DNA of 64,000 nucleotides from an uncultured bacterium (GTDB lineage: Bacteria; Patescibacteriota; Saccharimonadia; UBA4664; SCTI01). The position numbers and the translations under genes were made by a program. The DNA lies in assembly GCA_963721685.1 (NCBI GenBank), contig CAVRJJ010000001.1, forward strand, positions 303,950-367,949, given 5' to 3'. Positions 29,725 through 57,932 of the stretch are shown here, in pieces (position 1 is the first letter of the stretch; every line of letters starts with the position of its first letter). The notes under the pieces were generated by a model, which worked only from the letters and a program-made list of their open reading frames with translations, did not search any database and was not told the DNA's origin.

Positions 29725-30892
29725 CTACCGCTTTAATTCCTGCAGCGCACGGTCCAACTGTGGATCGCGGCCAGCGCTAAAGTCCTCAGGCGTTTGTTTA
29801 ACTTCAATGTCCGGCTTGATCCCAACCTTATCAATACCCTTGCCGCTGGGAGTAAACCAATGGGCTACGGTAATTTTAACCTGGGCACCGCCATCCAACT
29901 TTATTACTTCTTGGACACTGCCTTTGCCAAAACTCTTTTCGCCAATAAGCTTGGCCTTGATGTTATCACGTAACGCCCCCGCCACAATTTCACTTGCCGA
30001 TGCGCTGCCGCCATTAATTAATACCACTACCGGCAGCCCTTCAAGCGCCCCATTACCGGTACTGGTAAGTTTCGTCTGGCTGCGGCCATTCTTGCGTTCA
30101 TCCACTACCACCTTGCCCGCCGGTACAAACTGGCTTACCACGTCTACCGCCGCCGACAAGTAGCCGCCCGGATCATTTCGGACATCCAATACAATTCCCT
30201 TTACTCCCTGGGCTTTAAGCTCGCTAGCAGCCTTATTCATTTTTTCCGAGGTGTCGTCGCCAAAGGTAGAAATTTTAATATAACCAATACCGCCTTCTTT
30301 CATGCTCCAGGTCACACTTGGTACATCAATAACCTCCCGGGTAATCGTTAAGCTCCAACGGTTGGTTGCTGCCGCGTAGTACCGTTAAGGTTACCTTGGT
30401 ACCGGCCTTGCCCCGGATCTTTGCGACCGCTTCGTCGACGGTGTAGGAGGAAGTATCTTTTTTATTAATTCCGGCAATATAATCCCCGGCACGTAAACCG
30501 GCTTTTTCAGCTGGCGCTCCGGCAATCGGGGAAATTACGGTGAGCTTGTTGTTTCGAATACCGATTTCCGCGCCAATACCCGAAAGGGTGCCGCTTAACT
30601 GGTCCTGCAAATCCTTAGCGTCTGAGGCATCCAAGTAAACCGTGTAGGGGTCCCCGGTGGAGCTTATTAAACCGGCCCGGGCTCCATCCAAGACTTTAGC
30701 GCTATCGATTTTACCGTCATACCGGCGTTGCAACAAATCGTAGGTATCGTTTAAGCTTTCAAAATCCAAAGGCTGATGCCCAATTGACCAGGTATGAGGA
30801 ATGACTTTAGGCGCGGCTTGGCCGCCTACAAAAGCAATACCGGCAACCAGTATCGGCACAATAAGCCCTAATTTACGACCGCGTCGCTCCAA
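29725..30892 (-). CDS. C-terminal processing (S41, Ctp/Prc-like) peptidase. Its PDZ domain (30326-30892) and S41 catalytic domain (29725-30315) are in different frames, a +1 frameshift near 30345-30352.
   Basis: One frame gives PDZ (GIGAEIGIRNNKLTVISPIAGAPAEKAGLRAGDYI). The other gives S41 (IGYIKISTF...VLINGGSASASEIVAGAL...EKSFGKGSVQ). Confidence 0.8.
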
Positions 30893-34944: not shown

Positions 34945-35180
34945 AACCAGTATTTACGCATGACAGCGTAAGCAGTGTCAAATGAGTTTTTTAGCTTAAC
35001 AAAAGGGAAAACACTTAACCATAAGAATTTACAAGGGCTTGGGAAAGGTATATTTGGCTTTTGGCGAAAAATCTAAAAAAAATCTCAATCCTCGTTCTGC
35101 TTTTGTGAATTATGCAGAGTCAAGCAGTTTGAGTATTTTGTATGTTATTAGCCTATGCCATACATTTTGTTGCTGCAGAA

Positions 35181-35233
35181 TTGCATCATATTTGCATCAA
35201 ATGTGCATCACTTTTGCCGCAGATCTGCCATCA
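35181..35233. promoter_or_regulatory. Three to four direct repeats of TGCATCA with about 11-bp phasing in the spacer upstream of the M23-ftsEX operon.
   Basis: The motif occurs at about 35182-35188 (tTGCATCA), 35193-35199 (tTGCATCA), 35204-35210 (gTGCATCA) and as a degenerate copy at about 35226-35233 (TGCcATCA), giving helical-phase spacing. Confidence 0.35.
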
Positions 35234-35250
35234 ATCACAAGGATTAAAAG

Positions 35251-36335
35251 TTAGGCACCGATTTGGCTGCTTAAGTAAGCGTCAATAAACGGTTCAAGGT
35301 CGCCATTTAATACCATTTCGGCCTGGGAGGTCTCGTGTTTGGTGCGATGATCCTTCACTTTAGTGTAAGGATGAAGCACATACGAGCGAATCTGGTTCCC
35401 CCACTCGGCGCTCATGACCGGGCCGCGCAGCTTGCTCAACTCTTCTTGTTGCTGCTCGAGCATGAGCGCCGTAAGCCGGGCTTTTAAGATAGCCATCGCC
35501 TTCTCTTTATTTTGTAGCTGCGAGCGTTCGTTTTGGATCGCCACGACGGTACCGGTTGGAACATGCGTGATCCGCACCGCCGAATCAGTGGTATTAACAC
35601 TTTGGCCGCCATGGCCGCCGGAACGGTAGACATCAATCCGCAACTCTTTTTCATCCACCTCAAACTCCTCAGGATGCTCCAACTGCGGCACCACATCCAC
35701 CAACGCAAAGCTGGTTTGGCGTAAGTTATCGGAGTTAAAGGGACTTAGCCGCACCAAACGGTGCACACCTTTTTCACTTTTGAGTTTGCCGTAAGCGTAC
35801 GCGCCGGCCACTTCAACGGTGACACTCTTAAGGCCAGCCTCTTCCCCATCGGAACGATCAATAATATCGGTGTGCCACTTTTGGCGTTCGGCAAAGCGCA
35901 GATACATCCGCAATAGCATCTCCGCCCAGTCTTGGGCGTCAGTCCCCCCGGTACCGGCGTGGATCGACAGGATTGCCGAGCTACGGTCGTGGTTGCCGGA
36001 CAGCTTCAGCTCGAACTCGCGATCGCTGTAAAGTTCCTGTAGGCGCTCAAGGTTTGCCTGCAGATCCGGTTGCATACTGACATCATTCAGCTCGGCCAGC
36101 TCGCGCGCCATAATAATATCCTGATGCAACTGGTTCCAGCCCTCGCTATGGCTTTTGAGCCCGGCCGCCTCCTGGCTGATTTTGGCGGCCGCGGTTGGAT
36201 CATCCCAAAAATTAGGTTCGGCCATCGTTTATCAAGTTCTTTTAAACGCGTTTGTTCAGCGGCTAGACCAAGCCGCTCCATCGCGGTTTCAACCCGCAGC
36301 TGTAAATCATGCAATTGTTTAGCGGTAGCGTCCAT
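35251..36335 (-). CDS. prfB: Peptide chain release factor 2, with a -1 frame discontinuity near 36226-36232 between the N-terminal 37 codons (ORF 36087..36335) and the main ORF.
   Basis: An SPF motif (VRLSPFNSDN) and GGQ are present. N-terminal fragment MDATAKQLHDLQLRVETAMERLGLAAEQTRLKELDKR joins MAEPNFWDDP only by a -1 shift. No CUU-UGA autoregulatory site is present. Confidence 0.8.
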
Positions 36336-36439
36336 AATTTTCCTTTACTATCCGTTGACAATATGCCCTGGGTATCATATTATACACATATCACCACGAT
36401 CGGTTACCTTGCAGTGCGTGTCCTGCAAGCTCATACCGG

Positions 36440-36988
36440 TCATTTTTTATTTTCCACATACTCCAGCTTCTTTTTATTAACTGAAACAAAATCGAAGTAA
36501 GTTGGATATTTATTTAAAAGTTGAGAATAATTTACTTTATTAGGGATAAGAATGGTGCCCAATTTTTCTTTCTCATAGAGGTATTCGTAAAGGCTTAGGA
36601 AGTCTCCGTCACCCGATACAATTACAGCCTTATCGTAATTATCAATTTCTCTGGCAGCAGCGTAGAGCACGAGGTCCGTATCGACGTTTCCCTTGACCTT
36701 CGTCTTGCCTTCCCCGTCTTTGAATGATGTTGTTGGCTTTAGTACAACGACATAACCCGCGCGTTGCAGATAGGCATACAGTCCTTCATTGCCGGGCAAG
36801 TTGCCAATAAATAAAAATGCTTCCTCAACCTTATATTTATCCTTCAAGAAACGACGAAATTTTTCAAAATCAAGCTTCCATCCCGTATAAACTTTTCTTC
36901 CATGTCGAGTAATGTCTTCCCCCACTCCCATATTGAGGTTTTGGCTATCGATGAAGGCATATACCTTTACATGTGCAGTTTTAGACAT
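36440..36988 (-). CDS. NYN/LabA-like (PIN-fold) nuclease domain protein.
   Basis: VYAFIDSQNL...NVDTDLV...IVSGDGDF is a LabA/NYN signature. The gene sits in local AT-rich DNA. Confidence 0.65.
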   Translation of the reverse strand: MSKTAHVKVYAFIDSQNLNMGVGEDITRHGRKVYTGWKLDFEKFRRFLKDKYKVEEAFLFIGNLPGNEGLYAYLQRAGYVVVLKPTTSFKDGEGKTKVKGNVDTDLVLYAAAREIDNYDKAVIVSGDGDFLSLYEYLYEKEKLGTILIPNKVNYSQLLNKYPTYFDFVSVNKKKLEYVENKK

Positions 36989-37024
36989 GGCTTTAATGTA
37001 GCATTAATAGCAATGGCTGGACAC

Positions 37025-37066
37025 GCAGAAAGCCCCGGTCTTCCAAAAGGAAGCGGGGCTTTCTGC
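37025..37066. terminator. Perfect 13-bp inverted repeat hairpin (GCAGAAAGCCCCG...CGGGGCTTTCTGC) following a second GC hairpin (GGGCCCGAGGGCCC) downstream of the LPETG gene.
   Basis: Both inverted repeats are seen directly in sequence between the minus-strand genes. Confidence 0.55.
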
Positions 37067-37142
37067 TACTTACTCGCATAAATGTGAGCAAGCGCCAACT
37101 AGAGTAACGGGCCCGAGGGCCCGCCGCTAGCAACCAAGAATA

Positions 37143-37998
37143 TTATTCTCGGTTAAGCAGTTTATCGGCCAAAGCCTTCTTACTGCGGCGATAGGCTACG
37201 ACGGCGTAACCAAGGGCACCGGTACCGGCCATACCAGCCAAAGCGGCTTCAGGACCAGTCTCAGGAAGAGCAACCGGAGTTACCGGAGTCGCGGGAGGCG
37301 TTACCGGAGGGGTAGGAGGGGTTAGGAGGGGTAACCGGAGGGGTAACCGGAGCACTAACCTTAACTTTAAAGGTCACGTCCGCGATGTAGTGGAAACAGC
37401 CCGGGATTAACCCGTTGAGGCTGTCATAACCAAGCAATGTACCTTTGGTAACATCGCCCAGGATAGCACCGTTAACGGCGCCTTTACTGGCAATACGGGC
37501 AGAGCCAGGAACAACGCTGACTTTTACCTTACCATCGCTGGTAACGTTGGTGTCATCGAAGATGGTTCCGGGAGTAGCGTTCGAAGCCGAAATGTGGCCG
37601 CGAATGTTAGTGGAGCCATTAACTTCACTGGGCATATCTACCTTTAAAGTAGTGTTTTTAGCGTTCAGCTTTTCTGGATCGCTTGTCTGGGCAGGATCGG
37701 CGTTGTTGTGCACATACGCGCGAACTTCATATTCTTGGCCGGCAACTAATTTCACCGAGTCAGAATAAGCACCGCCAACTTGACGAATCGTTAAGAAGTT
37801 ACGTTCATCACCATATTGGGGGGTGTTGGTAAATGAGTTGAACTGGACATGGCCAGGACCACCACAAACACCGGTGATAGAACCACAGTTGAAGGTGGGA
37901 CGATCAGGACCAAAAGCGGCAAATGCCGTCATCGGCACCGCTAAGGTCATGGCAGCTACCGCGCTAACGGCAACTCCCTTTTTAAATTTTGCATTCAT
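37143..37998 (-). CDS. Sortase-anchored surface protein (signal peptide, Ig-like/adhesin body, PT-repeat stalk, LPETG + TM + RRSKK sorting signal). A +1 frameshift sits inside the PT-repeat stalk near 37285-37300.
   Basis: A 245-aa ORF ends ...VTPPVTPPNPSY... and an overlapping 70-aa ORF supplies ...TPPVTPPATPVTPVALPETGPEAALAGMAGTGALGYAVVAYRRSKK. The junction lies in GGTAACCGGAGG tandem repeats. Confidence 0.75.
37261..37345. repeat. Tandem GGTAACCGGAGG(G)-type repeats encoding the Pro/Thr/Val linker of the LPETG protein.
   Basis: The repeats are seen directly: gttaccggaggggtaggaggggttaggaggggtaaccggaggggtaaccggag. Confidence 0.7.
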
Positions 37999-38228
37999 AG
38001 TATCTTTCTCCTTTGCCGTTTAAGGCAAAATTACTTAATCACACGTGTTAGTAAGTTATCGGGTTGGGCCGCGAATTGTGAAAGGACACTCTCTGCATGA
38101 GAGGCCTGACAGCTGGATAGTCATAGATGTTCAAGTCGGACACCCGACCAAGTCTGCTCTTAAGTCCCCGAAGGGTAAAAAGAGTCTTACGACTTGGCCG
38201 GATGGACCCGACTATTGCTGGTTGATGT

Positions 38229-39200
38229 TCACCGTGGCCGGTCGGCGCCCGAGCTCGCCGGGGGATCCCGGTTGAAGACCTTCCGCACGATGCGGAGCTT
38301 CTTCTTCGAGCACTCGAACTTGCCGGTAACCGTCACGGTCTTGTTGCCGTAGGGACGGGCGCCATGTCCACGGAAGTCACCGGCACGAATGACCCACTTG
38401 AAGGGCCTGCCGTACTGAGTGGCTCCGAACTGGCGTCCGTCGACCTTCAGCTTCACCTGCGTCAGGTAGCGGGTTCCCGCTCCCTTCAGACGAAAGGTGA
38501 TGGTTCCGCGCGGGCTCTTGGGAGCCTGATGCGGGGTCCATACGAGCTTCACGGCTCCGCGCCTGTCGACGCACTTCGTCGTCCTCTTCGGCTTCGGCTT
38601 GGCCTTGGCCTTCGGAGTTGGAGTGGTGGTCGTCGGCGGGAGGCCCGGCGGGTGCGCGATGTACGTGTTGCACGAGTTGTTCGTGCAGTAGTTGGTGCAC
38701 GAGTACTTCGTGCAGATCTCGGTGTTGCACGACTGCACCGCGCAGTTGACCTGCGTGTTGCACGAGTCGCCAACGCACTTCACCGTGTCACCCGGAGGGG
38801 GCGGCGGCGGTGGGGGCGGCGGCGGGGGCGGCGGCGGTGGTGGCGGCGGCGGCGGAGTGCCGGGCTGCTTCGCACAGACGAACGCGCCCGCGTTGTACGT
38901 GATGTTGACCTCGGGGAACGAGTAGCTCTTCTCGAAGATGAGCTCCGAGTAGTAGTTGGTCTTCATCTCGTACCGCAGCGTGGTGTTGTACTCGTTGTTC
39001 GGTCCCGGGTACGTCCCCAGCTCGTCGGCCCTCAGAAGGAGGCCGGTGCGGTTGGGGTTGCCGGCATACGTCGGCGCGGGCGACCCGTCGGGACACGTCG
39101 AGGCCATGGCCACGGGTGCCGCGAAGAGCATCATGGCAAGGGCCATGAGCACGATCGCGATCCTCGCGACCGGATTGGTCTTACGGGTACGGCGGGTCAT
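38229..39200 (-). CDS. Secreted protein with signal peptide, a 22-residue poly-proline tract, Cys-rich SCNT/CT(K/N)Y micro-repeats and a Lys-rich segment. It is the cargo of the GC-rich element.
   Basis: ATG at 39200 is preceded by an AGGAGG RBS 7 nt upstream. The N-terminus MTRRTRKTNPVARIAIVLMALAMMLFAAPVAMA is a signal peptide. The track ORF start (39437) is a read-through of the terminal repeat. Confidence 0.65.
   Translation of the reverse strand: MTRRTRKTNPVARIAIVLMALAMMLFAAPVAMASTCPDGSPAPTYAGNPNRTGLLLRADELGTYPGPNNEYNTTLRYEMKTNYYSELIFEKSYSFPEVNITYNAGAFVCAKQPGTPPPPPPPPPPPPPPPPPPPPPGDTVKCVGDSCNTQVNCAVQSCNTEICTKYSCTNYCTNNSCNTYIAHPPGLPPTTTTPTPKAKAKPKPKRTTKCVDRRGAVKLVWTPHQAPKSPRGTITFRLKGAGTRYLTQVKLKVDGRQFGATQYGRPFKWVIRAGDFRGHGARPYGNKTVTVTGKFECSKKKLRIVRKVFNRDPPASSGADRPR
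38795..38858. repeat. GGC/GGG simple-sequence repeat encoding the poly-Pro tract (reverse strand).
   Basis: ggggcggcggcggtgggggcggcggcgggggcggcggcggtggtggcggcggcggcgg. Confidence 0.8.
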
Positions 39201-39646
39201 TCCAGACCTCCTGGTCGGTAAATGGAGCAACGTGGCTCCAGAATCCCCAATGCACTCATGAGAGTACACTAGTCCTGATCGTCCACGTTGCAGGGCGATG
39301 GTCAGGATCCTACCGATGTTGCGTAATTGGCGCAGCAACATGAGCAGAGTCCTGACCATCAAATAACCGATATCCAGAAAACCTGTAGCAATAGTCGGAA
39401 TTGGGTCTTGAAGACCCATGACTATCCAGCTTGTCAAAGTTCCCTATGAAAGACCGGCTGGTTTCCACCTCACCTACGTCTCGCAGAGTAATGACACGTA
39501 ATATATCATGCTTATGCAATTTTGTCAAGGAGTTGATGGTAAAATGTCTATGATTTATGATCAGATTAGGCGATCTGGAGATTATTGCTTATGCAAAATA
39601 CCGAATTATCTATTGGGAATATGCCTAAAAGATAGCGCTTTAGGCG

Positions 39647-40549
39647 TTATGTCTTAAATAGAAAGCTTTGGAGTATCTGATAATACTCCTCTGGCATCGC
39701 GTGAACAGACAGATGCTTGTAGTCGTACTCCGGGTCAGGGAACTCAAAGCGCTCCAGTTCAGGGTAATTACCAGTCCCCCGCGCCATCACCATGGCCTCC
39801 CGGCACTCCTGTATCTCCCCCACGCACTCGAAGGGCTTATGTCCTTCTATTCCGAGTAACTCGCGATAGGTGTGATCCAGATCGGGTTTCTCAAAAAGGT
39901 TTTCGCCATTAAATAGTTCCATCAGATCAACCTTGGGTGCAAACGGAGCAAATATGAGGTACACAAAAGCGCATTTCGGACATTCGCCACACCAGGTAAG
40001 CCCCTCTTTATGACTAAGGCTAAAGTTACGGTTACAGGAGCTAAATGTACCCTGGTACTGCTCAAGCCAGTTGGTGGTAAAAAGCTCGGCAATCCGCAGT
40101 TCACTTAAGGGGCGCAAAAAAGAAAAATAGTGAATATCGGGAGATATGTTTAATCTCACGTACTCCTGAAAATCGCGCTCAAACTCCAGGGTTTTTGAAT
40201 ACTGGTGGTTTACCGATATCTCCTGATAATCCAGGTTGCCTTCACCGGCTGAAGATTCATTGGAGAGGGCTATATGCCGGTTTCCGGTTAAAATGGCGCT
40301 CACCACGGAAGCGAACGCCAGATAGGCCGAGATGGGAACGTGGCCGTTATAGGCACCTTTGGCGTTAAGATCCTTCAGCTTGGAGTCAAGTGTACGTTCA
40401 ACCTGAAGATGCGACTTCCCGATCTGATCAATCTGGGGTTTAAGTTGTTCGGCATGGTTAATGGTCCAGCTGGTGAACTGCTGATTGGAGGATGCCAGGA
40501 TTCCGGCAGTGGTTAACGAGTCCTTACCGCCGCCAATCGGTACTATCAA
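39647..40549 (-). CDS. QueC-family PP-loop ATP pyrophosphatase-like protein with a CGECPKC zinc ribbon and a roughly 80-aa C-terminal extension. It is a lone gene with a TTG or unresolved start.
   Basis: PP-loop GGGKDS is present. Compare GHVPISAYLAFASV with QueC VPGRNLVFLSFA, and SSCNRNF...TWCGECPKC with QueC C...CGECPAC. It lies in AT-rich DNA with no queD/queE/queF nearby. Confidence 0.55.
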   Translation of the reverse strand: MIVPIGGGKDSLTTAGILASSNQQFTSWTINHAEQLKPQIDQIGKSHLQVERTLDSKLKDLNAKGAYNGHVPISAYLAFASVVSAILTGNRHIALSNESSAGEGNLDYQEISVNHQYSKTLEFERDFQEYVRLNISPDIHYFSFLRPLSELRIAELFTTNWLEQYQGTFSSCNRNFSLSHKEGLTWCGECPKCAFVYLIFAPFAPKVDLMELFNGENLFEKPDLDHTYRELLGIEGHKPFECVGEIQECREAMVMARGTGNYPELERFEFPDPEYDYKHLSVHAMPEEYYQILQSFLFKT

Positions 40550-40669
40550 CCCATTGCCATAGGAGGATTGCGGATTGGACTGGATCTTCGGGTCTACTGG
40601 AAAGGAGCAAGCTTATCGGGACTTAGCTGGTTTTTGACTAGAAACTCCCCTAGTCCTTGTCGGTAGAGC

Positions 40670-40945
40670 TTATTGAAGAAACTTGGCTTGCTGCTGGTTC
40701 AATCCCTGGCCCTTAATGATGATCTGGGGCGCCAGATAAGCCTTAAAGTAGGAAATGCCGCCGACCAACCATAACCCGCGTACGGCGTTTTCGAGGACTA
40801 TAGGATTAAGGCCGTAGTAAGGATCCCCGTCAGCTTTAAGTGTTTCCGTAAAGTGCAACTCTCCATCATAGGAGTAGCGTAAATGTAAGGTTTGCTCTGT
40901 CTGGTTAAAGTCGTACCCCTCAAAAATAAAGGCTCTGATAGGTTT
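40670..40945 (-). CDS. Small ORF (about 91 codons) in the same frame as, and immediately after, the murD stop codon. It has no ATG and a possible TTG start at 40858.
   Basis: The frame stays open from the murD TGA onward: KPIRAFIFEGYDFNQTEQTLHLRYSYDGELHFTETLKADGDPYYGLNPIVLENAVRGLWLVGGISYFKAYLAPQIIIKGQGLNQQQAKFLQ*. Confidence 0.25.
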   Translation of the reverse strand, partial: KPIRAFIFEGYDFNQTEQTLHLRYSYDGELHFTETLKADGDPYYGLNPIVLENAVRGLWLVGGISYFKAYLAPQIIIKGQGLNQQQAKFLQ

Positions 40946-42250
40946 TCACGACGTTTTCACAAGGTCGTGGACGGCTGCCTTGAAATGGTCGCCGCGCTCA
41001 CTAAAGTTCTTAAACATATCAAAGCTGGAGGTTCCCGGTGAAAGCAGCACCACGTCACCTGGTTTGGCTTGTTTACGCGCCAGCTTCACGATATCGCTCA
41101 TCTTCGAAGGGCCTAAGCTGTAGTTGCTGTAGTCCGCCTTGTCTAGGGCTTCAGTGATCTGATGCGAAACTGCCCCTATCACGATAACGTTTCGAACGTT
41201 AGCTATGCCTACCTCGCGGGCGATACCATCATAGCTGAGGCCTTTGTCGAATCCTCCTAAAATTAGTACTTTAGGCTCAGTAAAGGCCTGGATAGCGGCG
41301 ATGGTAGCACCAGGACTGGAAGAGTAGGAATCGTTGATGTAGGTGGCTTCATCAATAACCGCCACCTTCTCTAGCCGGTGCTCCAACCCAGCGAAATGCC
41401 TAATAGCCTGCTTTATCGGATGGGGATCCTTAATGATTGGCCAAACCGCGGTGATGGCGGCGCAGACATTATCCCAGTTATGACGGCCAGCCAGGGCAAT
41501 ATCTGTGACTGAGCAGATAGTGGTGTCCCCTATTTTTACCGTATCGCCATCTATAAAGGCGCCATCGGTGGAGTTATAGGCGGTTTGATCAGCCGGGGCG
41601 CCTAAGCCGCTTTGCAGAGAATACAGGTTGCAGGCATTGAACACCGCGCGGTCACCCGGTTTCTGGTGGGTAAAGATCATTTGCTTGGCTCTCAAGTACT
41701 CATGCATATCCGGATGCCAATTCAGATGGTCCGGAGCGATCATCAGCATTACCGCCACGTGGGGGCTGTATCTGATATCAATCAATTGGAAACTTGATAG
41801 CTCCAAAACCACCCAATCTTCTGGTTTAACCTGGTCTAAAAAGTCCAGAGGTGGGTGGCCAATGTTGCCCCCCAGATGGACGGTGCGTCCGGACGCTTCA
41901 AGCATCTTAGCAATCAAGGAGGCGGTAGTGCCCTTACCTTTAGAGCCGGTCACCCCAATTACCTTGGCCGGACAGTTCCCAAGAAACTCATTGGTCCCCG
42001 AGGTAATTTTAGCTGTGTCCAGATTGGGGTTGGCCTGGAGGAGCGCTTGGGGGCGGATACCCGGAGTGCGGACAACCAGATCATATTGATCCAAGCTCTT
42101 GAGATAATCAGCTCCCAAATGGGAGTCGACGTCTTTTGGCAACATTTGCTCAGTGTTTTCATCATGAATGCAGATCTGATGCCCCAGATCGTGCCAATAG
42201 GTGTACGCGGACTTACCTTCCACCCCATAGCCAACAATCGCAACTTTCAT
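40946..42250 (-). CDS. murD: UDP-N-acetylmuramoylalanine--D-glutamate ligase MurD.
   Basis: Mur ligase motifs (GVTGSKGKGTT, DxSSFQL). Confidence 0.9.
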   Translation of the reverse strand: MKVAIVGYGVEGKSAYTYWHDLGHQICIHDENTEQMLPKDVDSHLGADYLKSLDQYDLVVRTPGIRPQALLQANPNLDTAKITSGTNEFLGNCPAKVIGVTGSKGKGTTASLIAKMLEASGRTVHLGGNIGHPPLDFLDQVKPEDWVVLELSSFQLIDIRYSPHVAVMLMIAPDHLNWHPDMHEYLRAKQMIFTHQKPGDRAVFNACNLYSLQSGLGAPADQTAYNSTDGAFIDGDTVKIGDTTICSVTDIALAGRHNWDNVCAAITAVWPIIKDPHPIKQAIRHFAGLEHRLEKVAVIDEATYINDSYSSSPGATIAAIQAFTEPKVLILGGFDKGLSYDGIAREVGIANVRNVIVIGAVSHQITEALDKADYSNYSLGPSKMSDIVKLARKQAKPGDVVLLSPGTSSFDMFKNFSERGDHFKAAVHDLVKTS

Positions 42251-46695: not shown

Positions 46696-47926
46696 TCAGC
46701 CGTACTTCGCCATGCCCGCAGGGCATTGTATTTCAGAGCAACCGCACCACATAGATATGCGGGTGGGCCTCCAGCTCTGTGACCAACTCGTCCGGTACGC
46801 GTTCGTTGAGATCGAAGACCGAGTAGGCCAACTCGTCCTTTGAGACGTTCCCCATGTCCTCGATGTTGAGCTCCGTACTTGGCGATGATCGCGGTGAGCT
46901 CGCTCAGTATGCCTTCCGTCGTTGGCGTGGACGATGGTCAGCCGATGCTCGGAAGCCCGCGACAGAACGAGATCGGGCAGGTTGACAGCATTCCTGACGT
47001 TGCCATGTTCGGCGAAATCGATCAACTGTCGCGCAGCCATGACCGAACAGGCCGCTTCCGCCTCGGCGGTGGAACCACCGATGTGCGGCGAGACCACCAC
47101 GCAGGCATGACCCGCTAGTGCCTGCATCCGGTAGGTCGGTGAGATACCTCCCCACCTTGCCAGCATTGAGCGCGTCGATCAGTGGTTCCGTCTGAACCAA
47201 CTGTGCCCGAGCCGTGTTCACGAGCATCACGCCCGTCTTCATGAGCTCGAACTCGCGCGGGCCAATCATGGCGTCGGTCCGCGGTCCGCCAGGTACGTGC
47301 AGCGACACCACGTCGCTGCGGCGAAGCAACTCGCTCGAGGCTGTCAACGAGTTCAACGCCCACGTACTCGAGGAACTCGCGAGCATCAGCGCTGATCCCC
47401 GGGTCGTACCCGAGGACGTTCATACGCAATCCGGCATGAGCTCGAATGGCCACCCATCGCCCGATATTGCCGAGACCGACAACGCCAAGCGTCCGATGGC
47501 GCAGCTCGAAACCGGCAAAACGCTTCTTGTCTTTTTCTGCGCTGGACCGGAAAGCCGTCGTCAGTGCCGTGTTCGGCGACATAGGCGAAGGCTTCGGCGA
47601 GCTTGCGCGCCCCGATCGTAATGAGTCCCAGCGTGTGTTCCACCACTCCGTTGGCGTTAGCGCCGGGGGTGTTTGGACGCCACCACACCTCGCTGGCTCA
47701 AGACAGCGAGAGGGAGGTTGTCGACACCGGTTCCAGCGCGGGCAAGCGCGATGACGCTTGCGGGCACCATCTCCGGCACCTCAAGGTATCCGCGATATGA
47801 GCGCAGCAGGATCAACAGCGGGTTAGGTTCCCGCTGGTCAGGATCGCAGGTGTACCCCGCGTCCCTCAGCAACTGCAAGCCGTCACGACCGATTTCATTG
47901 TGAAGACGTACGATCATTCCCCTCAC
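46696..47926 (-). pseudogene. Decayed D-3-phosphoglycerate dehydrogenase / D-isomer 2-hydroxyacid dehydrogenase (serA-like) gene in at least 5 frame-fragments on GC-rich (about 62%) DNA.
   Basis: Overlapping minus ORFs carry a PGDH N-terminal domain, a GxGxxG NAD site (VGLGNIG), ESDVVSLHVP...LMK...LVNTAR and HIGGSTAEA motifs in different frames. Confidence 0.65.
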
Positions 47927-50708: not shown

Positions 50709-52744
50709 CTACTTTACGCAGCCGCCAGGACGGCTGAAACACCACTGCAGTGTTTCGCGGACAGCCGGCGCGGCATATTGGGCGCCTTCGCCAGAATTCT
50801 GGATTAGAACTACCATTTCAATTTGAGGATCATCGTAGGGCGCAAAAGCCGTAAACCACGCGTGTGGCTTACGTTTTCCGTTGGGATCGGTTTCAGCCGT
50901 GCCGGTTTTTGCGGCCACCGCCACTGGCACCGATTCTTCAATTTTGCAGCACGCGGTACCGTAAGGCCGGTTCACCACCTCGCGCATAGCCCGTTTAACA
51001 AGGTTTAAATGGCTGGCCTCAATAAAGTTCTCATCCTGAATTTTTACTTGTGCCGAGCGGGTAACCACACCATTATCGCCAGTCAATTCCTTAAAGAAAT
51101 GCGGCTCGATGACTTTTCCCCCGTTCGCGATCGCGGCCTCAGCAACCGCCATTTGCAGTGGTGAGGCCAGCAAGTCGCCTTGCCCAATCGAAATATTATA
51201 GGTATCACCCACGGTCCAAGGTTCGCCGCTGAACTTTTGTTTCCACTCGGGCGTAGGAATCCGTCCGGCGGTCTTTTCCGGAAGGTCAATGGCGGGCAGC
51301 TTGCCTAAGGCCAAATTTATTGTAGTAGGTGGTTAGCTTGGAGACACCGAGACCGGCAATATTCCCATAACCGCCGCCGACCGTGTAAAAGAAGACATCC
51401 GAACTGACAGCGATGGCTTTTGATAAGTTTACCGCGCCATGCCCGCCCGGATCATACGAACGGTAGGTATATTTAATGGACGGGTCATACTTATTGGTTA
51501 TAACAATTGAACCAGTATCGTTAACGGTGGTATTGGGGCTAATTGCCCGCTCCTGAAGCGCCGCCGAACCAATCAGCGGTTTAATAATCGATCCAACGGG
51601 ATATGCTCCGGCAATGGCTTTGTTGAAAAGTGGTTGCGCGGCATTCTTCACTAGCTTTTGGTAATCTTCCTGCCCAATACCCCGCGCGAACAGGTTGTTA
51701 TCGTACCCCGGCAGGTTAACCACCGCCAATACTTCGCCGTTTTTTGGGTTAAGGGCAACTCCTGAAGCCTGGGACGCGCCGCTGGCCTGCATTTGGGCCT
51801 TAATGGCATCGGTAAGCTTATGCTGCAGCTCCATATCAATAGTTAAGGTTAAATTAGCCCCGGCTTTGGCCGGGCGTGAAGCCAGCAGCTTTATAGGCCG
51901 ACCAGCGGCATCAACTTCGGTCTGTTCAATCCCATTCTGGCCTTTTAGCAAATGCTCATACTGCTTCTCGATCCCCAGTTTTCCAATAAAATCGGTGGAC
52001 TTATAGTTAGGGTCGGCATCAAGGTCAGCCTGGCTCACCCGGCCGGTGTAACCCAGTATGGCCGAAAGCGTATCGTCGTTATACTGGCGGATTGGGTTGG
52101 TATCCAAGCTAAATCCCGGGAGCGAACCTGAGGCCTGGTCAAAGGCTAGCCATCGGTCCCGTTCAACATTACTTGCCACTAGACGCGCCTGAGGGTTCCG
52201 TAAGCAAGCAGCCAGTGCAACTTCAGGCTTTTTACGGCCGGCTATTTCGGCCGCTTGGCACTCTCCTTCTGCCTTAGCCGCTACGTCAGACGCGGGAACC
52301 CCCAGAAAGCCCTCCTACCGTGCTATAGAGCCGCTGCCGGGCCGCAGAATCGGTTTGGGGCAGTAGACTTGGTGTAACGGTAATGTCCACACTGGCTAAG
52401 TTTTCCGCCAAGACTGCTTTGTTACGGTCATAGATTATACCGCGCGGGGCCCGGGTGACCTTTTCGCGCAAGCGGTTGCCGTCCGCCAATCCCAAATTGC
52501 GCTGGCCTTGAACCAGCTGAAGGTGCGCGAGTTGGGCAATCAGAATTAAGGCCCCCAACACAACCAGCACAGCTACTATTACTAGCGGGCGCTTGCTCGT
52601 GGGGGTTTCAATTACACCGGCCGCGGCATCGGCCGGCAATATCGCGTCCGCCCACTGCTCGTGGCCCCCTTGGTCGCGTTTGATAGTAACCCGATCCTTT
52701 TGGGGATGTGCCTCGCCGCCATACCCAAACAACGATTTGCTCAC
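50709..52744 (-). CDS. mrdA: Penicillin-binding protein 2 (elongasome transpeptidase) split into three frame-fragments (52286-52744, 51286-52179, 50709-51314). There are two +1 frameshifts, near 52298-52311 and 51294-51300.
   Basis: Fragments carry the N-terminal TM/pedestal, the middle region (SIIKP = SxxK) and the C-terminus (KTGTAE) in order. The middle fragment's frame is open across the first stop, and the third fragment starts at TTG inside the second. Confidence 0.8.
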
Positions 52745-55114: not shown

Positions 55115-55425
55115 CTATAACCCTGAGCATTACCATCTTGATCTAGTTTACAGGAGTAGCTGTCCTCCGCCAAGGCCACAATATGTGTTCAGTGCCGCTG
55201 ACGATGGTTATGCCAGATGAGCTGAATAAAGCTTGTGTTCAAAATAATCGCAACGTGGACTGGGCGACTGGAAATTATTGCGGTCGACTCCCGGGCTGAC
55301 TTTAATTTGGAAAAGACGTACAAAATTTACCATAACAAGCCCAAAAAAGATGGTAACTTTTGTACGCAAATCAATATCTATGAGAGTGTACGGAAAATAA
55401 GGGTGGGGTGGCCAGCCCCGGCGCT

Positions 55426-55899
55426 TTAGCGCCGGAGCCAACCGCGGACAGCCTGAACGACAGGGATGATCAACAGCGGCCGCTTCGGAGGCAACAACCA
55501 CAGTTGCCGCTTGAAGTGGCTGGTTGCCGCCCGCTTGTCGCGCCGGATCACGTTGGCCTCCCTCCAAAGGAGGGCAAGGACGGAGAGCGCCCCCAGGTAG
55601 GCCGATAGGAAGTGAGCGAACCGAATACGCCTGCGAAAATGCAGGATGACGCACGCCAGGACGCCAAAGAGTGCTGAGGCAGCAACCTCCCACCACTCAC
55701 CGATCATCTCGATAAGCATGGTCATCAACCCGAACACCGCCCCGAGAAAAAGAGCGACGGCCCTGGAGGGACTCTTGACCAGAGCCAATCCGATCATCGC
55801 CAAGAGCGTCAGAGGGGGCAAGCTGGTCCAGTAGCTCCAACGCCAGTTGATCTGCTCTGGCGTTACCTGACAGCGGACCGAAGGTGACAAAGTAGCCAT
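55426..55899 (-). CDS. Hypothetical polytopic membrane protein encoded on a GC-rich (about 62%) patch.
   Basis: About four predicted TM helices. GC composition is atypical and the surrounding overlapping ORFs look spurious. Confidence 0.35.
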   Translation of the reverse strand: MATLSPSVRCQVTPEQINWRWSYWTSLPPLTLLAMIGLALVKSPSRAVALFLGAVFGLMTMLIEMIGEWWEVAASALFGVLACVILHFRRRIRFAHFLSAYLGALSVLALLWREANVIRRDKRAATSHFKRQLWLLPPKRPLLIIPVVQAVRGWLRR

Positions 55900-57211: not shown

Positions 57212-57932
57212 TTACTTTTGGTTAAGTGCCATGTAGGCAAGATAGTTATTAAGCATATGAATGCCGATGCCAGGGATGGTTGAACCCAACCGGACATACA
57301 AAAAACATAATAGCAGCCCAAGGATGAAGGTGTACACGCTTACATTTAATTGCAGGTGCGCCACCGCGAACAATAAACTTGAAACGACGGCGCCGAGCAC
57401 CACCCCAAAGCGCTTGGCAAAAGCCGGAAACATAAAGCCGCGAAAGACAATCTCTTCGATAATAGGAGGAATAATGACCAGCGCCCACAAGCTAAGCAGG
57501 GAAGGGACTTTTTGTAAACTCATTGGTTTGGGGTTCTGCCGGATCAAATGCCGGATAGATCAGTTTTACCAGTATATCGGCGGCGAAAACCAACAATCCA
57601 AAACTTATAAATAGTAAAAACACATATAAAAGCGCCTTTGCAATTGAAAATGACTTAAGCCCCAGCGCCGAGACGCCCACCTTATATTTGCGCATAAAAT
57701 AGCCAATGATCACCAGCGAACCTACCACATCTACCACCACAAGCGCAAAGGCGGCGAAAGGGCTACCAGCATCAAGCGCATTCAGGAACGTGTTAAGACC
57801 AGGGAAATAGATTGAGGCCGCTCCTATGCCAACCAGCAACAGGACGGGCAACAGCACCCAGGGCACAATAAAGAGGAGCAGCGCCTGGCCCAACGTCCAT
57901 GGAGCTGATCGTATCGCGGCCGAATACGACAC
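57212..57932 (-). CDS. CPBP-family (CAAX) intramembrane metalloprotease in two frame-fragments; +1 frameshift near 57505-57515 (A5 run).
   Basis: The N-fragment holds TM helices. The C-fragment carries EExxxR (IIEEIVFRG) and FxxxH (FAVAHL) motifs, and the fragments overlap by 56 nt. Confidence 0.7.

Follow-up and report, generated by a model that had tools for sequence, protein, structure and literature searches.

We analysed a window of 64,000 nucleotides (nt) from an uncultured bacterium (contig CAVRJJ010000001.1 of GenBank assembly GCA_963721685.1), focusing on the interval of about 4.5 kb that separates prfB, which encodes release factor 2, from the ligase gene murD. Between 32 kb and 45 kb of the window, every gene lay on the minus strand, in the order ftsX, ftsE, M23 peptidase gene, prfB, a gene with a NYN domain, a gene encoding a surface protein with an LPETG motif, a GC-rich open reading frame (ORF), murL, murD, and secA. 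Synteny was established using murD-centred loci from 80 species, in which the loci of relatives carry labels such as L001. These loci placed the window in the Saccharimonadales, where the nearest MurD proteins were 60-62% identical.

The base composition of the interval was mixed. For a window with 51% GC overall, GC content was 38.8% in the NYN gene, 49% in the surface-protein gene, and 65.6% in the GC-rich ORF, which had a GC content at third codon positions (GC3) of 0.87. A preliminary description of this DNA, made from its letters alone, had reported such heterogeneity, which these gene-by-gene values bore out, and had judged the mix of genes typical of defence/modification or host-interaction islands. 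We consider that the interval is probably not an island of defence or DNA modification but a composite of three unrelated things: murL, a surface-protein module, and the NYN gene. The following features were distinguished, from prfB to murD:

35251-36335, minus strand: prfB (release factor 2), delimited using the ORF length in relatives and a Logan contig
36440-36988, minus strand: predicted nuclease of the NYN/LabA family, 182 amino acids (aa) (Pfam PF01936)
37025-37125, minus strand: two GC-rich, terminator-like hairpins (inverted repeat, RNA fold)
37143-37998, minus strand: sortase-substrate surface protein, termed surf, with a Pro/Thr stalk (ORFs, intact allele P0241, homologs)
38111-38219, minus strand: 3' arm of a long-range inverted repeat, made up of A1' (38111-38148) and A2' (38208-38219) with a GC hairpin between them
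38229-39200, minus strand: GC3-rich gene for a secreted Cys/Pro-rich protein of 323 aa, termed the slot gene (composition, homologs in the same slot)
39297-39360, minus strand: leader hairpin H2 of the 5' untranslated region, its stem about 26-29 base pairs (bp) long (inverted repeat, covariation)
39386-39437, minus strand: 5' arm of the inverted repeat, with A1, a local hairpin (h5), and then A2
39500-39528, minus strand: strong sigma-70-type promoter (TTGACA-17-TATATT, extended -10)
39647-40949, minus strand: predicted murL (NCBIfam NF041275), with three 1-nt indels
40946-42250, minus strand: murD, encoding the partner ligase of MurL (TIGR01087, 344.6 bits)

murL and its partner gene murD

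The ORF at 39647-40549 had been taken for an AT-rich gene of the QueC family. Its GC content was in fact 48.7%, and its product matched the NCBIfam model of MurL, NF041275, with 260 bits (E = 2.9e-77). A small ORF located upstream matched the N-terminal part of the same model, and reading across three frames yielded a single murL gene, with a GTG start at 40949 that overlapped the murD stop codon. This gene was broken by three 1-nt indels, all situated in short base runs (40922-40926, 40679-40681, and 40599-40603). Once reconstructed, the protein scored 331 bits (E = 7.6e-99) over model positions 8-392 of 447, and could be aligned with the unbroken L002 MurL over their full lengths, at 55% identity and with one gap; an exact look-up of this reconstructed protein in the protein collection returned nothing. 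An identity as QueC was considered and rejected: neither the reconstructed protein nor the L002 MurL had a Pfam QueC match at E <= 10, and NCBIfam gave only MurL. No relative was found in the PDB and no match in PADLOC. Moreover, no queD, queE, queF, dpd, or qatABD genes were present among the neighbours, which were murD, secA, and the surface module. From these matches, we read the so-called QueC-like gene as murL, the predicted gene of a peptidoglycan enzyme.

The position of murL was conserved. It lay immediately 3' of murD in 48 of the 55 Saccharibacteria-type loci and in none of the 26 Clostridia-type loci, and prfB, ftsE, and ftsX directly followed murL in L041, L042, L044, L045, L049, L052, and L079. 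The order secA-murD-murL-prfB-ftsE-ftsX, observed in these seven more distant Saccharibacteria, is ancestral. As murL is a core gene, the non-ancestral DNA extends only from about 36336 to 39646, and the boundary of the proposed island shifts inward to murL.

Departures from this arrangement were observed in L001, L091, and L087. In L001 (4540-5346), a close relative, the glutamate racemase gene murI (TIGR00067, 195.7 bits) was found directly after murD, in the place of murL, and the same replacement was observed in another close relative, L091 (4156-4959). In L087 (5352-5536), neither murL nor murI came after murD. Within one clade, murL thus seems to have been replaced or lost more than once. 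No MurI-like sequence was present within the 64-kb window.

At our locus, the gene of a MurL homolog adjoins the 3' end of a murD-type ligase gene and overlaps it, an arrangement that recalls the MurD2 and MurL pathway of Xanthomonas oryzae (described by Feng et al.; review, PMC8788868). By analogy with Xanthomonas, MurD and MurL would together make the D-glutamate (D-Glu) position of the peptidoglycan stem peptide, L-glutamate (L-Glu) being ligated first and then epimerised in an ATP-dependent step. Several points weigh against a simple transfer of this function. NF041275 is a curated model built around the characterised protein XOO_1319, with an equivalog cut-off of 700 bits, and both the window MurL (331 bits) and the L002 MurL (390 bits) scored below it. 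In addition, the alignment placed D and K of the window MurD opposite D182 and K348 of Escherichia coli MurD, whereas E197 and R358 set the L-Glu specificity of X. oryzae MurD2 (PMC8788868). Because the window MurD does not have this E and R, the L-Glu route is a putative one here. The three indels are a further difference from the Xanthomonas genes. The residues equivalent to D182 and K348 varied among MurDs linked to MurL, being D/K in the window, D/R in L002, and E/R in L008; because of this variation at both positions, the E/R rule of Xanthomonas does not transfer simply to Saccharibacteria.

The hosts reported for MurD2 and MurL are Xanthomonadales, a few Alphaproteobacteria, and rare actinomycetes, a list from which Saccharibacteria are absent (PMC8788868). 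In the library searched, we found no relevant paper on MurL from Saccharibacteria or Patescibacteria. PMC11974145 cites work from 2024 on the activity of MurI from Ca. Saccharimonas aalborgensis.

The surface module and its inverted repeats

The gene next to the NYN gene, surf, encoded a protein with an N-terminal signal peptide (MNAKFKKGVAVSAVAAMTLAVPMTAFA) and a C-terminal region (LPETGPEAALAGMAGTGALGYAVVAYRRSKK) comprising LPETG, a run of hydrophobic residues, and the tail RRSKK. In the window, surf was split over two frames inside its Pro/Thr repeat, and the C-terminal part was in frame only in an intact allele, P0241; a sortase-substrate surface protein with a frame broken in the repeat, as in the preliminary description, was therefore confirmed. 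Two full-length homologs, P0122 and P0123, were 66-69% identical, and orthologs adjoined prfB in L001, L002, L081, L086, L087, L089, L091, L098, and L099. Although surf itself had no Pfam match, its more distant homologs carry PF01345, and its signal peptide, Pro/Thr stalk, LPETG motif, hydrophobic segment, and basic tail resemble those of LPXTG proteins of the DUF11/TIGR01451 type. Unlike the latter, surf was always paired, in this clade, with an upstream gene for a secreted protein. Between surf and the NYN gene, hairpins were located at 37025-37066 and at about 37106-37125, in a stretch (37025-37125) that was conserved in L001, L002, and L081. The fold of this gap had an energy of -75.8 kcal/mol and a z-score of -6.4, in agreement with the strong paired hairpins described previously; judging from this fold, the two structures 3' of surf look like terminators.

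The surface module was composed, in order, of a promoter, a leader of about 300 nt with the 5' arm of the repeat, the gene for a secreted protein, the 3' arm, and the LPXTG gene, followed by prfB. It was complete in L081, L001, L002, L087, L089, and L091, and partial in L086, L098, and L099. The promoter, TTGACA-17-TATATT with an extended -10, was conserved in relatives. The module is a clade-specific insertion of two genes between murL and prfB, in which the strong promoter would drive the leader, then the mosaic secreted-protein gene, and then the sortase-anchored LPXTG protein.

The first of these two genes, the slot gene, starts at the ATG at 39200, behind AGGAGG, and stops at 38229; its product has a signal peptide. 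The C-terminal domain was 47% identical to that of the L087 slot protein, with a weaker likeness to L091, and the N-terminal domain was also common to L087, whereas the slot proteins of L001, L002, and L089 shared other domains among themselves. Since different slot proteins share different domains, the family is mosaic; it is also fast-evolving. Slot proteins had no matches in a Pfam scan, and an AlphaFold prediction of the GC-rich ORF, run without an alignment, was unusable (mean predicted local distance difference test score of 41).

No homolog of the window slot protein was found among the 5.8 billion proteins searched, and the slot ORF itself was not in the protein collection. Public gene calls often take a long antisense ORF in place of the slot gene (5809-6873 of L087 and 2268-3194 of L090, both on the minus strand; 38364-39221 of the window, on the plus strand). 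Because gene callers pick this antisense ORF, the real secreted protein is missing from databases, and the empty homology search is explained by divergence together with these antisense calls.

With GC3 counted from the ATG at 39200, the slot gene differed markedly from its neighbours (0.87 versus about 0.57), and Saccharibacteria live on Actinobacteria. A recent import from a high-GC host, for instance an actinobacterium, could account for such a contrast. We nevertheless judge this origin very doubtful: the slot genes of L081, L087, L089, and L091, which have domains in common with that of the window, were themselves GC3-rich (0.73-0.86) in genomes of 50-56% GC, and the search of 5.8 billion proteins gave no homolog that could represent a donor. 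Since orthologous slot genes are GC3-rich in most relatives, the bias is an old property of the locus and not a mark of recent import. Frequent recombination as its cause is speculation.

Three other observations were made on this gene. A conserved peptide, APVFGASF or APAFGANL, precedes the signal-peptide Met in the slot ORF of L001 (5791-5880), L002 (9354-9445), and L081 (6977-6900). In the window, an upstream ORF of 20 codons (39197-39259) has a stop that overlaps the main ATG; the peptide or the upstream ORF may represent a leader peptide or an alternative start. Finally, short-read contigs ended inside the GC-rich slot gene in L086, L098, and L099, as did the Logan contigs of ERR12037361, perhaps because GC-rich DNA was poorly covered or because the population is heterogeneous in this gene.

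Around the slot gene, we observed an imperfect inverted repeat of 38 nt (38111-38148 and 39394-39431) with 76% complementarity; matching repeats of 25-40 nt, with 78-88% complementarity, were present in L001 and L002. The 5' arm (39386-39437), of sequence AAGYTGGATAGTCATGGGTCNTCAAGACCC..CCGACTAYT, was nearly invariant in the seven genomes showing both arms, with 86-90% DNA identity compared with about 70% for the flanking genes. Its reverse complement was located 3' of the stop codon of the slot gene, split by a GC hairpin into two segments (38208-38219 and 38111-38148). The repeat core, TGGATAGTCATGG, occurred once per arm in each locus and nowhere else in the window or in those loci. Repeats, promoter, and leader were found at the orthologous site in seven further genomes, of which L081, L001, L002, L087, L089, and L091 had both arms and L086 the 3' arm alone. 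L081 was the one further Saccharibacteria contig returned when metagenomes were scanned for the arms. The preliminary description had interpreted the structure as a mobile cassette bounded by terminal inverted repeats. The inverted repeats are real; their conservation at a single orthologous site, on the other hand, identifies a resident slot and not a transposon.

The two arms have changed in a compensatory manner. AAGCTGG/CCAGCTT alternated with AAGTTGG/CCAACTT, TGAATAG/CTATTCA was found in L087, and GCGAC/GTCGC in L089. In the long-range helix A1, which comprises 25 pairs, 88.6% of the cells were paired, three pairs were compensatory, and 11 cells were G.U. When the seven complete loci were co-folded, each adopted one common four-way arrangement. 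The leader hairpin H2 (39297-39360; about 29 bp) was also supported by covariation: 16 of its 29 pairs were compensatory, 96% of the cells were paired, and none of the 500 shuffles reached the observed values. Because H2 is rich in G.U pairs, these favour a structure in the sense RNA. Rfam 15 gave no match at E <= 1 in 35000-42000 of the window or in L001, L002, L081, and L091. A tRNA-like 5' arm was also considered, as the GGGTCTTCAAGACCC hairpin resembles an anticodon arm (UCA), and was rejected, since ARAGORN predicted no tRNA and Rfam gave nothing. The pattern of the H2 loop had four viral matches, all of them devoid of the hairpin and attributable to chance.

Long-range stalks flank the 16S and 23S ribosomal RNA (rRNA) in bacterial operons and are substrates of ribonuclease III (RNase III). 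The arrangement described here is similar in that the complementary segments are 1.3-1.8 kb apart, could form a stem of about 25 bp, and show compensatory changes; it differs in that it would enclose a protein-coding cistron and is without an Rfam match. If the arms act at the mRNA level, they would join the two untranslated regions, 5' and 3', through a stem of about 25 bp plus one of about 12 bp. This stem would enclose the coding region in the manner of an rRNA processing stalk, and would thereby set the processing or stability of both cistrons, possibly through RNase III. We tentatively propose, as a possibility well short of a firm conclusion, that promoter, H2, and two-part arms form an undescribed cis-acting RNA architecture of the processing-stalk type, which would control the processing of the hypervariable, persistently GC3-rich secreted-protein cistron relative to that of the sortase-anchored protein, in a Saccharimonadales clade with a way of life that relies on surface contact with its bacterial hosts.

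Two observations weigh against this proposal. The duplex energies of the long-range repeat did not differ consistently between sense and antisense strands, so that the repeat may have a role in DNA, and the near-invariance of the arms could equally point to a protein-binding site. The repeats might thus bound a mobile cassette that is non-autonomous, or might serve as sites of recombination or inversion by which the slot gene is swapped or flipped and so turned on or off, an explanation to which the similar energies of the two strands and the near-invariant arms both lend themselves. Imperfect inverted repeats of 38-50 nt do bracket exactly one gene, and this gene is mosaic and differs between genomes. 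However, only one pair was present per locus, at one orthologous site, and the eight genomes shared a single orientation of it relative to surf and prfB, from which the Logan contig of this sample did not depart. L089 and L090 seemed to differ by a strand flip, which was rejected as an inversion, as their DNA is 100% identical and only the gene calls differ. Moreover, no target-site duplication was seen at the ends, no copies of the arms were found in a scan of viral contigs, and no transposase or recombinase was recognised, by inspection only, among the window ORFs of at least 120 aa. Both H2 and A1 had, in addition, an excess of G.U pairs when read as the sense strand. On this evidence, we regard an action of the repeats in DNA as unlikely, and favour, as a tentative proposal, an action in RNA.

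Interrupted reading frames

The broken frame of surf had been proposed to be a phase-variation switch. The stalk of surf is made up of tandem units of 9, 12, and 21 nt, with one 10-nt reading of the same tract. Because the units are of 9, 12, and 21 nt, a change in their number cannot shift the frame. Judged against the intact allele, the lesion was a 10-nt tandem duplication at 37313-37332. The intact allele, P0241, encodes a surf of 281 aa that falls in one protein cluster with the truncated window product, and comes from the Logan assembly of ERR12037361, which is the same sample; it was identical to the window except for the duplication. Simple-sequence contingency loci are similar in that a repeat tract in a surface gene coincides with a frameshift. 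They differ from surf, in which the unit lengths are divisible by 3, a 10-nt duplication breaks the frame, and comparable indels affect essential genes of the same assembly.

Indeed, the frame of prfB in the window stopped after 82 codons, with a break at about 36228-36232. The gene measured 1085 nt, compared with 1086-1098 nt for the uninterrupted genes of relatives, and was thus 1 nt short. In the Logan contig of ERR12037361, an identical NYN gene was followed by an ORF that remained open for 215 codons from the prfB ATG. A programmed +1 frameshift in prfB was considered and rejected, as there was no CTTTGA, relatives had a single ORF, and the Logan contig was open across the break. Other housekeeping genes of the window were each split into two adjacent ORFs in different frames: those of an S41/CtpA-like peptidase (29725-30892), a PBP2-like (mrdA-like) transpeptidase (50709-52179), a membrane protein (55208-55899), and a CPBP protease (57212-57932). 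This suggests approximately one indel per 5 kb in this assembly. A second GC-rich patch (46696-47582; 61% GC) was also observed, in which a serA-like/2-hydroxyacid dehydrogenase gene was spread over three frames with 4-5 frame changes; either an acquired gene has decayed here, or errors are dense in this stretch.

Errors in the assembly consensus are the most likely source of the frameshifts in surf, murL, and prfB, because the essential prfB and other housekeeping genes are also split, and because an independent assembly has an intact surf and an open prfB. We therefore did not retain the proposed phase-variation switch. Both the intact and the frameshifted surf came from the sample of ERR12037361, and prfB showed the same discrepancy between assemblies, which points to an assembly error.

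Part of the evidence weighs against assembly error in murL. Its three indels were clustered within about 350 nt, all of them in the first part of the gene, and murL has been lost repeatedly in relatives (replaced by murI in L001 and L091, absent in L087), which leaves room for a real and recent murL pseudogene. It could accordingly be argued that the frameshifts are biological, surf being a phase-variable locus, with intact and frameshifted alleles in one sample, and murL a gene lately inactivated while its lineage changes over to murI. Repeat units that keep the frame are difficult to reconcile with such a locus, as is a 10-nt duplication without flanking microhomology that would favour slippage. 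Furthermore, prfB, an essential gene, is shifted in the window, whereas the independent assembly has it open; the window contains at least four more split housekeeping genes; and the rest of murL is undecayed, with 55% identity to L002 compared with 60% for MurD. Biological frameshifts are thus improbable, and we keep consensus errors as the explanation.

The NYN gene and the character of the interval

The assignment of 36440-36988 to a NYN/LabA nuclease was borne out, since its product matched the NYN domain PF01936 with 52.6 bits, above a gathering cut-off of 24.2 (E = 9e-14). It contained the acidic motifs FIDSQN, NVDTD, and SGDGDF, and in both domain and motifs resembled the single-domain predicted ribonucleases of the LabA/NYN family. 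We found 7961 homologs, of which the best were 65-80% identical and those with a name belonged to Saccharibacteria; this family was more conserved than MurD. The NYN genes of relatives were also AT-rich relative to their genomes, and the low GC content is therefore a feature of the family.

In contrast to its sequence, the location of the NYN gene was not conserved. It was absent near murD in all 80 murD-centred loci, and its genomic context differed in the four loci checked (L083, L084, L096, and L097). In two of these (7411-8001 of L083 and 7292-8014 of L084), the NYN gene overlapped an upstream gene encoding a protein of 196 or 240 aa. The two upstream proteins had only a C-terminal motif of about 38 aa in common (FPFPL...LP..L...DARRI..FIE). 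Unlike in these two relatives, in which the NYN gene is translationally coupled to a variable upstream gene, the window NYN gene stood alone, and NYN and the upstream gene may form a two-gene module whose first half is missing here.

The site between surf and prfB was empty in L001, L087, L089, L091, L098, and L099. It was occupied by a HicB-like antitoxin gene in L086 (2339-2563), by an unrelated ORF of 169 aa in L081 (4141-4650), and by the NYN gene in the window, and behaves as a small insertion hot spot. Neither the partner proteins of NYN nor the 169-aa ORF had matches in a Pfam scan. The NYN gene is a free-standing member of a conserved family that moves position between genomes and fills, here, a small variable spot. 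Just outside its ends, we noted a 12-nt inverted repeat with one mismatch (36415-36426, TGCGTGTCCTGC; 37016-37027, GCTGGACACGCA), which may be due to chance.

If the interval served in defence or DNA modification, the NYN nuclease would join with a lone 7-deazaguanine enzyme of QueC type to counter phage, in the manner of Dpd or QatABCD systems. A genuine NYN domain is present, and PADLOC returned a single match for it, weak and partial, to PDLC01154 (LabA-like NYN nuclease; E = 1.3e-4, 19 bits). The HicB antitoxin gene that lies beside prfB in L086 also indicates that small selfish genes land at this site. Yet the supposed QueC, which has no Pfam QueC match, corresponds to MurL and is coupled to murD across the phylum; PADLOC had no match for MurL, the GC-rich slot protein, or the surface protein; and the NYN gene and murL are separated by the conserved surface module and the terminator-like hairpins. 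Synteny largely refuted this interpretation, which we hold to be extremely unlikely. Comparison of the loci showed that the NYN spot is indeed variable, whereas murL and the surface module were conserved in relatives. The notion of accessory content holds for the non-core, surface-exposed, and fast-evolving genes and for the variable slot by prfB, and fails for murL, which is core.

The reading of the interval as a composite of murL, a surface module, and an NYN gene removes a false defence-island call, and illustrates that indels in the consensus of a metagenome-assembled genome can pass for pseudogenes or phase variation. PP-loop ORFs that adjoin murD in Saccharibacteria and appear QueC-like should be read as MurL. 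What is of interest at this locus is the undescribed architecture of leader and long-range repeat, together with the phylum-wide pairing of MurD and MurL and its natural replacements by murI. The leader and repeat, set around a fast-evolving secreted protein, are candidates for a regulatory element that acts on host-interaction genes of Saccharibacteria. Should MurD and MurL function as in Xanthomonas, an alternative route to D-Glu would be the rule in a whole epibiotic phylum, and the relatives that have swapped murL for murI would provide a natural experiment on the evolution of MurD stereospecificity.

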